30,672 nt of DNA from Nitrospinales bacterium. GTDB taxonomy: Bacteria > Nitrospinota > Nitrospinia > Nitrospinales > JAJDAT01. Of this stretch, positions 1 to 3,173 are shown piece by piece. Each line of letters starts with the position of its first letter. Positions within the stretch are counted from its first letter, which is position 1. The notes below the pieces were generated by a model. The model was not told the DNA's origin, made no database searches, and worked only from the letters and a program-made list of their open reading frames with translations. Made by a program: the position numbers and the translations under genes. The stretch is from NCBI GenBank assembly GCA_046757665.1, contig JBHHYO010000028.1, positions 1-30,672 on the forward strand. The letters run 5' to 3'.

Positions 1-581
1 ACCGAATGTCCGAGATGATTCAGATAAATTATTACGCCCTCTTTTCTTGAAAATTTCATGATCGGGATAAAATCCTGATCCCCGGTAATCAAAACAATCC
101 TATCGACGATTTTTTTTATCGATAGCCATGCAATATCCAACCCTATCTTCATATCAACCTGTTTTTGTTTCATATCGGGAATGAGGTCGTTTCCGCTTAT
201 TGTGGGAGAAGTTTCGTTTTCCATCCGTTTTAAAGCCGCATCACCCAGCTTCCATCCATGCATCATCAGACACCCCTTCCTCACGGCAAATGATGGCTCC
301 AATTCCAATTTGTCAAGTATTCGTTGATTTTGAGAGGCGGATGGGGAAGCGCCGAAATCTTTTTTCTGCTTGGTAAAAGGGTGCGTCTTCTGCCCCTGGT
401 AAGGGGGACAATCGTAGTAATAAATTCTAAACAGCTCCAACTTTGTCAACTCATCGGATTTTCTAAGTTCGTTGCAATAGCCAACAATATCTTCGGCTTG
501 AATTACTTTTTTTTGGAGTCTCTGGCGGAGTTTTTTCTTTAAGAATCCGGCATCAATTACAATTGCGTATTTTTCGCTCAT
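1..581 (-). CDS. NYN domain (LabA/DUF88, PIN-like fold) putative ribonuclease; 3' end runs off the window
   Basis: Manual translation from ATG at 581 is open to the window edge: MSEKYAIVIDAGFLKKKL...LFRIYYYDCPPY...DMKQKQVDMKIGLDIAWLSIKKIVDRIVLITGDQDFIPIMKFSRKEGVIIYL. Contains the NYN acidic motifs IDxGF, YYYD, QKxVD and TGDxDF. Absent from the ORF track because there is no stop codon in the window. Confidence 0.92.
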   Translation of the reverse strand, partial: MSEKYAIVIDAGFLKKKLRQRLQKKVIQAEDIVGYCNELRKSDELTKLELFRIYYYDCPPYQGQKTHPFTKQKKDFGASPSASQNQRILDKLELEPSFAVRKGCLMMHGWKLGDAALKRMENETSPTISGNDLIPDMKQKQVDMKIGLDIAWLSIKKIVDRIVLITGDQDFIPIMKFSRKEGVIIYLNHLGHS

Positions 582-668
582 AAAAAAAGGTCGACCCCTT
601 CCTCACGCGGAGCCAAAGCTCTCTTATATCAATGGGCGTAAAAAAGGGGTCTGGTGTCATCAATTTCT
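582..668 (-). ncRNA. Structured leader RNA or candidate small RNA upstream of the NYN gene
   Basis: Minus-strand RNA: GACCCCUUUUUUACGC (651-636) pairs fully with GCGUGAGGAAGGGGUC (608-593), 16 bp including 3 G-U pairs. The 27-nt loop holds an inner hairpin GAGC-UUUG-GCUC (621-610). Followed by GACC-U7 and then AUG. Confidence 0.6.
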
Positions 669-674
669 AATTCC

Positions 675-704
675 ATAGTATCGGCCAACCTGCGAAAAAG
701 TCAA
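675..704 (-). promoter_or_regulatory. sigma70-type promoter for the leader RNA and NYN gene
   Basis: TTGACT (704-699), 18-nt spacer, TACTAT (680-675). Confidence 0.65.
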
Positions 705-1013
705 GCTTTTCCGCTTTGACCGCAGGATAAAAATGTGGGAATGCACTGACAGGACAAATTAAATCTCGACGAGATAATCGGCGCAAACCCTCAACTTTTC
801 GGGCCACCGAATATTCGAACTGACTGATAAGTGAACAGATTCGCCTAAAAAGGCCAGCAACAAAATTTCGAGGTGAAGAAGATATCGGTTGGCTTAACTC
901 TCGCACAATGCTATCATCAAGCCATATCCAAACAAAATTTTATCATTAAATAACAATTAGTTGTGCCTTGACGGCATTCACCTGAGCCCTCATCTCGGCA
1001 ACGCTGGCCTGAA

Positions 1014-2471
1014 ATGCGGAACAATTCTCTGAAAAAAGAATCGGTAAAAGGATGGACGGTTCAAAACCGGTTGAATCTCCTGGTTTGCATCCTCATATTT
1101 GCCTCGGCTATGGCCATTGTTGGCGGAATCCAAATTTACAAGGGGGCTAAATTCCACCAGTACAATTTTCTACACGTCAAATACAATCATCAGTTTCACT
1201 CCGAAGTCGATGCCTTCAAGGCTGGGCAAGAAAATATTTCCGCTATTCAATCCGTGATCCAAAAAGTGCAGAAGCAACCGCTCGACTGCCTTGACGAAGC
1301 CACTATCGTCGAGCGTTCCATGATGAAACTGATAGACACCGACCGGGCTATCACCCTCTGCGAAAACGACATTGCCCTGGGAGACCGGACTCTGGCCGAT
1401 TTGAATAACTACAAAAAAGGATCCATTACCAGAGAGAAACTGATTAAAATCCTTGACAATGCCATGACCGGGTTCTTCGCCAATTCGGCCGAATTCTCTC
1501 CGCTGATTGCTCAAACCGTGTCATTCATGAAAAATGTCATGCTGGGCCTCATGGCGTTTTTGGCATCTATTTTCGTGATTCTGGGATTCTTTGTTGCCCG
1601 AAGCGTTTCCAAGGATTACGATCGTTCAAAGGAAATGCAACGCGCCTTGAAGAAATTGAATCAGGACTATTTGTTTATCCAAAAGAAACTCGAAGAGGAT
1701 ATTAAAAAGAGAAAGCAACTTGAGGAACAAAGGCAAACCATATTGGCCGACCTGGAAGTGACCAACCGCAAACTCAGCCAGTCCAACCAGAATTTAAACG
1801 AGTTCGCGTCGATTGCCTCGCATGATTTGCAAGAGCCGTTGCGCAAAGTCATTATCTTCGGAGACCGGCTGAGGGATGAATCGACCCATCTGGACGGCCA
1901 GAGCCTGGATTACATAACCCGCATGCAAAAAGCCACCGCGCGAATGCAAGCGCTCATCGAAGGTTTGCTGGAATATTCACGGATCACTGTCAAGGCCAGA
2001 CCTTTTCAATTGATCGACCTGAACCAGATCGTCAACGAGGTGTTTATCGACCTCGAAACCCCGCTTGAAGAATCAAAGGCAACCGTTAATATTGTCAGTC
2101 TGCCTAAGCTGAATGCCGACCCATTGCAAATGCGCCAGTTGTTTCAGAATTTGATCGGCAACGCCCTTAAATACTACAGAAAGGACACCCATCCTATAAT
2201 CAACATTACCAGTCGGGCAAGCGGGAGCGGTCATTTTAAAATCAGCGTTGAGGACAATGGCATTGGATTTGACGAAAAATACAAGGATAAAATTTTTCAA
2301 CCCTTCCAGCGGCTTCATGGAAAAAGCGCTTATGGAGGGACGGGAATGGGATTAGCCATTTGCAACAAGATCATTAAACGGCACAATGGGAAAATAGAAG
2401 TCAAAAGCACCCTGAACGAGGGCACCACATTCACCCTCACCCTTCCCCAAAAACCGTCTAATGTCGATTGA
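1014..2471 (+). CDS. Membrane sensor histidine kinase (two TM helices, periplasmic domain, coiled coil, HisKA, HATPase_c)
   Basis: H-box FASIASHDLQEPLR, N-box QNLIGNALKY, G1 EDNGIGF, F-box IFQPFQRLH, G2 GTGMGLAIC. Two hydrophobic segments flank a ~130-aa extracytoplasmic region. Confidence 0.93.
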   Translation: MRNNSLKKESVKGWTVQNRLNLLVCILIFASAMAIVGGIQIYKGAKFHQYNFLHVKYNHQFHSEVDAFKAGQENISAIQSVIQKVQKQPLDCLDEATIVERSMMKLIDTDRAITLCENDIALGDRTLADLNNYKKGSITREKLIKILDNAMTGFFANSAEFSPLIAQTVSFMKNVMLGLMAFLASIFVILGFFVARSVSKDYDRSKEMQRALKKLNQDYLFIQKKLEEDIKKRKQLEEQRQTILADLEVTNRKLSQSNQNLNEFASIASHDLQEPLRKVIIFGDRLRDESTHLDGQSLDYITRMQKATARMQALIEGLLEYSRITVKARPFQLIDLNQIVNEVFIDLETPLEESKATVNIVSLPKLNADPLQMRQLFQNLIGNALKYYRKDTHPIINITSRASGSGHFKISVEDNGIGFDEKYKDKIFQPFQRLHGKSAYGGTGMGLAICNKIIKRHNGKIEVKSTLNEGTTFTLTLPQKPSNVD

Positions 2472-2489
2472 GGTTGATCATTCACCATC

Positions 2490-3173
2490 ATGACTAAACA
2501 AGCGGTCATTTTACTGAGCGGCGGGGTGGATTCCACCACCACGCTGGCCATCGCCAAACACGAGGGATTCCAGCCGGTGACGCTCAGTTTCGACTACGGC
2601 CAGCGGCACGCCGTGGAGTTGCAGAAGGCCAAAGCGGTGTCCCGAAGCTTTGGCGTGGCGGAGCATCGCGTGGTGAAAATCGGCTTGTTTGGCGGCTCGG
2701 CCCTCACCGGCGACATGCAGGTGCCCAAGCAACGCGGCACGGCGGAAATGGCCTCCGGCATCCCCGCCACCTATGTCCCCGCGCGCAACACCATTTTTCT
2801 TTCCTATGGCTTGGCGCTTGCCGAGGTGCGGGGCATCGGCGACCTGTTCATCGGCGTCAACGCGATTGACTACAGCGGCTATCCCGACTGCCGCCCGGAA
2901 TACATCGCCGCCTTCGAGACCATGGCAAACCTTGCTACCAGAGCCGGTGTCGAGGGCAAGACCCGGCTGAAAATCCACACGCCGCTGATCCGCCTCACGA
3001 AAGCCGAAATCATCCGCAAGGGCCTGGAACTGGGAGTCGATTACCGGCTGACCCACAGTTGCTACGACCCCGACCCGGACGGCCGCGCCTGCGGCGCCTG
3101 CGACAGTTGCCTCCTGCGCCTGAAGGGATTCCGCGAAGCGGGCATGGAAGACCCCGTGGAGTATCGGGTATAA
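2490..3173 (+). CDS. queC: 7-cyano-7-deazaguanine synthase
   Basis: [10 protein letters not shown]-loop, [19 protein letters not shown] and C-terminal Zn motif SCY...CGACDSC. Confidence 0.96.

Follow-up and report, generated by a model that had tools for sequence, protein, structure and literature searches.

The left end of the window (by which we mean the whole stretch of 30,672 nucleotides analysed, from a Nitrospinales bacterium) raises the question whether the structured RNA encoded between a promoter and the gene of a predicted NYN ribonuclease is a partner of that nuclease or only a control element in front of it. We propose that the locus belongs to a mobile two-part module, in which a NYN/PIN-fold ribonuclease is bound and restrained by a small structured RNA in the manner of the type III toxin-antitoxin systems, and we would assign to this reading a probability of about 0.6.

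In the window a promoter, a structured RNA, a U-tract and the ribonuclease gene follow each other in one predicted transcription unit on the minus strand, which is the arrangement of type III toxin-antitoxin loci. The sigma70-type promoter (675-704, minus strand) consists of a -35 box TTGACT (704-699), an 18-nt spacer and a -10 box TACTAT (680-675), or alternatively GATACT with a 16-nt spacer. The original prediction had placed it at 704-675, where it is present as sequence with 9 of 12 consensus positions; this score alone is at the level of chance, 4 such sites being seen in positions 1-3000 and 3.6 expected. A score of at least 9 was found at the same position in 33 of 69 homologues having the RNA type of the window (type A, see below) and in 0 of 73 coding windows. 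The predicted small RNA or leader has a length of about 87 nt with putative ends (582-668, minus strand), and its calculated folding energy was -30.2 kcal/mol (z -3.9), a stability reached by 0 of 200 shuffled sequences; the z value of the plus strand was -2.1. Folding and covariation both support the P1 stem, in which the 5' arm (651-636, minus strand) is paired with the 3' arm (608-593) by 13 Watson-Crick and 3 U-G pairs, as well as the P2 hairpin (610-621, minus strand), which has 4 bp and the sequence GAGC-UUUG-GCUC. The 27-nt loop closed by P1 is made up of a 14-nt single-stranded junction (622-635, minus strand), P2 and one unpaired C, so the 16-bp stem with three G-U pairs and the loop with a hairpin of its own had been described correctly. 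The junction contains the motif AUAUAAG (629-623; family consensus AU-N-Y-AA-G/C), which we propose as a candidate protein-binding or pseudo-substrate site. As had also been noted, a U7 tract (582-588, minus strand) runs directly into the ATG at 581. Four nucleotides (GACC) separate it from P1, a spacing uncommon in strong terminators; judged from the sequence it is probably a leaky one. The 3' arm of P1 (593-608) contains the only purine-rich, Shine-Dalgarno-like stretch ahead of the start codon. A 14-nt exact repeat of this arm within the coding sequence (272-285 compared with 594-607) was considered and rejected as chance, since a match of that length occurred in only 1 of the 193 loci described below and matches of at least 11 nt were as frequent with unrelated loci. 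With 41-44% the G+C content of positions 1-1013 is lower than that of the adjacent histidine kinase gene (1014-2471, 46%) and that of the genome (54.8%), which fits a recent acquisition.

The gene itself (1-581, minus strand) is partial, because the contig end cuts it after codon 193; a 93% identical homologue, P0003, has 208 amino acids. The only Pfam domain found in the window protein is NYN (PF01936, E 3.7e-6, 27.9 bits against a cut-off of 24.2), and P0003 matches PHROG 5783, a family of unassigned function, over its full length (E 5e-54). A structure model of a family protein (pLDDT 96) has a PIN-like core with an insert of about 70 residues (residues ~60-135), which forms a large beta-hairpin with invariant basic residues. 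The best solved structure found by Foldseek was 2qip (VPA0982; E 1.3e-5, 16% identity, TM 0.50), and a PDB sequence search gave no match. In all 193 distinct loci D10, R52, R101, G103, Q139, D143, G147, D149 and D168 are invariant, D170 is kept in 192 and D203 in 190. The intact acidic motifs that the original prediction attributed to the protein are borne out for D10, D143, D149, D168 and D170, while D203 lies beyond the contig end. The family protein is a predicted ribonuclease with an intact acidic active site.

For the comparison of upstream regions three collections, with 583, 554 and 381 confirmed relatives, each supplied their best 80 loci, and 193 distinct loci having a full start and 110 nt upstream were kept, the window included. 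The 100 nt upstream of the gene gave a z value below -2 in 126 of the 193 loci, compared with 27 of 144 control genes of the same loci. Type A comprised 73 loci and a further 11 variants recognized by eye; 36 loci were of type B, 30 of type C and 11 of type D, and 32 were left unclassified. Types B, C and D were assigned by patterns written after inspection of the sequences, and one type C call (L143) is probably false. Most of the 18 unclassified loci that were inspected had some hairpin or an inverted unit.

Type A RNAs share the order P1, a junction of 11-14 nt with AU-N-Y-AA(G/C), P2, one nucleotide and the second arm of P1. Hand-cut stretches were aligned by sequence only, blind to structure, and the two type A subgroups were treated separately since a joint alignment (A2, 65% paired) set them off by one column. 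In the alignment of 32 RNAs 82.1% of the cells were paired, against 40-48% with slid partners, and 18 of 20 pairs showed compensation; in that of 25 RNAs the values were 92.9%, 37-56% and 12 of 17. P2 varies from 3 to 12 bp and is free in sequence, yet 93.6% of its cells are paired and all 4 of its pairs show compensatory change. In the junction motif A, U, A and A are invariant in 64 of 64 aligned RNAs. Thus the main claim of the original prediction, a covarying stem and a conserved loop upstream of the homologues, held in structure-blind alignments; what is conserved of the A/U-rich loop it emphasized is more specific, namely the AU-N-Y-AA(G/C) motif of the junction, AUCCAAG being its most frequent form (29 of 69). 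The terminator expected between RNA and gene is represented by U7 in the window and is not universal in type A: a script found a U-tract in 39 of 69 loci and three U or fewer in 22, of which about 7 were artefacts of the script, so that about 15 of 69 RNAs have none. Two tandem copies of the motif occur in L017, and otherwise there is mostly one.

The specificity of the RNA was examined with a covariance model (R1) built from the 32 type A RNAs. It recovered four held-out enterobacterial loci at E < 1e-7, and its strong matches in 181 sources lay only at gene starts of the family, with the exception of a single 27-bit match in L072; weak hairpin matches were seen in L071 and L154. In the window genome R1 found one site only. 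Of the 120 genomes examined in the phylum Nitrospinota, that of the window is the only one with the gene, and in the 119 others R1 gave no match (41 candidates scored per genome). Neither the window nor the leaders of 20 loci covering all four types matched any Rfam family, the abiF motif RF03085 included. Judged by these comparisons, the predicted structured RNA is specific to the nuclease gene, conserved, covarying and uncatalogued in Rfam. The exceptional match in L072 (7910-7971, minus strand) is situated about 2.3 kb downstream of a type B gene, off any NYN start examined.

In type B the sequence AUCCG(A)AC stands at the predicted transcription start and is followed by the hairpin GCCGG-UAGG-CCGGC and then by a separate terminator. 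The hairpin was 96.5% paired, against 9-43% in the controls, and 4 of 5 pairs were compensated, two mis-cut rows being included in these values. Comparison of types A and B thus reveals a single-stranded AUCC-like word beside a small hairpin, placed inside the terminator loop in one case and before the terminator in the other. In type B loci such as L045, L058, L094, L156 and L167, AUCC(A/G) could be seen by eye twice, at the 5' end of the RNA and in the terminator loop; this repeated word is a candidate recognition or cleavage word.

The relation between RNA and protein was followed on the protein tree. Over 161 classified rows the RNA class changes 5 times, whereas 200 shuffles of the labels gave at least 63 changes; since kin share labels, the tree demonstrates long co-inheritance and not binding. 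The types cut across hosts, A occurring in five phyla and B in nine, with both present in Acidobacteriota and Gemmatimonadota. The four predicted RNA folds follow the protein tree and not the host phylum.

A different kind of evidence came from loci whose RNA unit, still upstream, is encoded by the other strand and directed away from the nuclease gene, namely L033, L083 (with its twin L084), L085, L020, L059, L009 and L155. These occupy four places in the tree (L033; L083/L085; L009/L020/L059; L155), beside relatives that are not inverted. Promoters directed into the inverted RNA were found in L083 (10/12), L085 (9/12) and L059 (11/12) and weaker ones (7-8/12) in L009, L033 and L155, while L020 has a TTGACA-17-TAGGAT site recognized by eye. 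A test made on a quick tree of 24 chosen rows rejected a single origin of the inversion, the p-AU value being 1e-51 for all seven and 7e-5 for the three of type A. Since a purely cis-acting leader would lose its motif after inversion, and the inverted units keep it, we infer from these sequences that the RNA can act in trans.

This observation speaks against the strongest of the rival explanations, according to which the protein only autoregulates itself in cis, binding or cutting its own leader in a negative feedback, and would be a mild, non-toxic RNase to which the RNA is no antidote. Such a role would agree with the position of the RNA as a 5' leader in most loci (at a median of 18 nt from the start codon), with the many RNAs having no U-tract, and with the few intact genes that have no visible RNA: in L010, L013, L016, L088 and L116 no clear RNA was found within up to 260 nt upstream, and the catalytic residues are intact. 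However, at least four lineages have the RNA encoded by the other strand and directed away from the gene, with its motif kept and with clear or weaker promoters of its own, an arrangement in which a cis target is unworkable. We therefore regard autoregulation alone as unlikely. A second alternative, that the RNA is an activating cofactor or a sensor, in which case RNA and protein together would form the active enzyme or else a latent switch that a phage molecule opens, draws on the strict match of RNA fold to protein clade, on the dispensable U-tract and on the large beta-hairpin insert with its invariant basic residues. The RNAs, however, contain no variable unpaired segment resembling a guide, P2 is always paired, and a stem with a U-tract between promoter and gene fits an RNA made in excess over the protein; we consider this alternative less probable still. 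The remaining possibility, an ordinary attenuating terminator or host-factor site that travels with the gene and is never touched by the protein, is suggested by the terminator-like P1 and U-tract and by the fact that weak expression control is common ahead of mobile nuclease genes, but it is very improbable, since termination needs neither an invariant unpaired motif nor a covarying P2, the folds track the protein across host phyla, R1 finds nothing elsewhere in the window genome or in 119 relatives, and inverted copies persist.

In the RNA-antitoxin reading that we prefer, the layout suggests that one promoter would give an abundant RNA of about 85 nt together with limited read-through into the gene. 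The read-through mRNA would be poorly translated, since P1 sequesters the purine-rich stretch. The RNA folds, as the covariation shows, into P1, the single-stranded AUNYAA(G/C) and P2. Motif and hairpin would be the parts that bind the nuclease, with the active site and the invariant basic residues R52, R101, K140, K176 and R179 as the probable contact sites on the protein. Action in trans is what the independent inverted units point to. If the supply of RNA dropped, for example upon phage shut-off of host transcription or upon loss of the element, the RNase would become free and, by analogy with ToxIN and AbiF, might cut cellular or phage RNA and arrest growth, which would lead to abortive infection or to maintenance of the element. 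By the same analogy, we lean towards the view that the protein is toxic and would be neutralised by the RNA.

The family is distributed over prophages, plasmids and scattered chromosomes. A profile search yielded 556 representatives at E <=1e-30 among 1.84 billion, and relatives were present in 65 phage records and 166 plasmid records; intact type A cassettes occur in E. coli prophages in 6 of 5426 complete genomes at 80% cover. The 347 neighbouring proteins formed 298 clusters without a conserved protein partner, i.e. no protein antitoxin was found, and the largest clusters were integrases (21; 2 of 2 checked) and S24 repressors (5; 1 checked). The genome loci have 139 immediate neighbours, of which the longer 91 were submitted to PADLOC and 1 was matched, so that the chromosomal copies appear as solitary insertions and not as residents of defence islands. 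In prophages the gene occupies accessory slots, directly after cI in the lambdoid phage ev099 and between repressor and integrase in Javan85. Such slots are typical of accessory genes and are suggestive of an anti-phage role, for which we would put the chances slightly below even.

The ev099 member (L244:3004-3861), in the slot taken by rexAB in lambda, follows a promoter of its own and a hairpin RNA of another kind. It is present at full length in 74 of 5426 E. coli genomes, and matches of about half length occur in many O157 genomes. The member found on Campylobacter pTet is preceded by a promoter and a long hairpin (L246:2370-2420), which R1 does not match. In the strain of PMC3656092 the plasmid carries no family gene between the helicase and the next gene, thus its sRNA tables are uninformative for the pTet member.

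PIN-domain toxins are known with protein antitoxins. The ToxIN, CptIN and TenpIN systems have a toxin of the ToxN fold and an RNA of tandem pseudoknot repeats that the toxin processes. Here the toxin family of these systems was not matched, Pfam giving only NYN and the fold search 2qip, and a tandem repeat array is absent from positions 1-1100 of the window. Features shared with ToxIN/AbiQ, CptIN and TenpIN are the order RNA, terminator, RNase gene and the location on mobile elements (PMC13064643, a 2026 review, cited throughout for its accessible text). That text lists ToxIN/AbiQ, AbiF and AbiV as type III systems and contains neither NYN nor PIN as a whole word. The closest parallel in layout is AbiF/RCd22 (Saunier et al., 10.1101/2025.04.15.648962, likewise cited for its accessible part), with one promoter, a structured ncRNA, a terminator, a solitary RNase gene and a prophage location, and with an RNA antitoxin that is reported to act in cis and in trans by direct binding. 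AbiF, however, belongs to the HEPN RNases and is accompanied by the abiF motif RF03085, while the protein here has a NYN/PIN fold and its RNA has no Rfam match. AbiV is also an RNase inhibited by an RNA antitoxin, but it belongs to the HEPN superfamily (PMC13064643), and the HEPN toxin that marks AbiF/AbiD and AbiV was not found here, where Pfam gave NYN and the fold match was 2qip. Since both the toxin fold and the RNA family differ, the module stands outside the ToxIN/AbiQ, AbiF and AbiV families. The LabA/DUF88 NYN proteins (PF01936; 2qip, VPA0982) share the fold and the acidic active-site residues with the present family, which differs from 2qip (16% identity, TM 0.50) by the insert of about 70 residues and by the RNA partner; in the literature searched no RNA partner was found for LabA-type proteins.

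A pairing of a NYN nuclease with an RNA was described neither in Rfam nor in the full-text literature searched, which covered chiefly main texts and few of the subscription papers; a term search of PMC5737381, 10.1101/2025.01.08.631966 and PMC11381338 also gave none. The RNA-nuclease module is real and apparently undescribed. RNA antitoxins have been tied to ToxN-type and HEPN RNases, and AbiF has been proposed as the ancestor of Cas13, in the accessible parts of 10.1101/2025.04.15.648962 and PMC13064643. If the proposed reading is true, the class of RNA antitoxins would be extended to a PIN-fold RNase restrained by a small RNA, an uncatalogued RNA family would be added, and the spread of a solitary, fully conserved nuclease through prophages and plasmids with no protein partner would be explained.

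A second NYN subfamily, represented by WP_001399740.1 (PHROG 7929) on 4.6-kb E. coli plasmids and called NYND here, was considered as a member of the family and rejected as belonging to another subfamily (BLASTP E 0.04, PHROG 7929). In plasmid NZ_CP145651.1 its gene (L253:2708-3355) is preceded by a leader on the minus strand (L253:3375-3560) with a promoter, four tandem hairpin repeats and a terminator, a layout resembling that of ToxIN. Among relatives at 38-40% identity two of three (L254, L256) have hairpin-rich leaders and L255 lies in an operon; no relatives of this subfamily were found in viral contigs. The four-repeat leader hints at more than one origin of RNA partners among NYN nucleases. 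In its broadest form our proposal is that anti-phage RNA-antitoxin systems based on the PIN/NYN fold make up a widespread class, so that this fold would join ToxN and HEPN as the third used by such toxins; PHROG 5783 would contribute at least four RNA architectures that are interchangeable, and PHROG 7929 a ToxI-like four-repeat array. The RNA module would then be one that can be moved from a terminator loop to the 5' end of a transcript or flipped into a separate gene, and would offer a tractable model for the capture of nucleases by RNA partners. This broad form we hold more tentatively than the anti-phage role of the module itself.

The NYND unit was scored non-defensive in the DefensePredictor study (PMC13092281, cited here for its accessible part). 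Since it represents a different subfamily, this negative result is no test of the PHROG 5783 family. In addition, the forward primer with which the unit was cloned in PMC13092281 is identical to a part of repeat 3 and has one mismatch to repeats 1-2; all of these sites are downstream of the apparent promoter in NZ_CP145651.1, so that the published negative test may have lacked the promoter. The same source describes DS-3, a single-gene PIN anti-phage system whose catalytic residues are needed for defence and which, like the present family, has a split PIN domain and no protein antitoxin. DS-3 was rejected as a family member, because this VapC-like protein of 340 amino acids has, by eye, neither the RIYYYD nor the QKxVD motif. 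Family motifs were recognized by eye in another protein of that study, WP_116651624.1 (supplementary file 5, row 1711), which is listed as a predicted novel defence gene with a log-odds of 8.0, as a prediction only.
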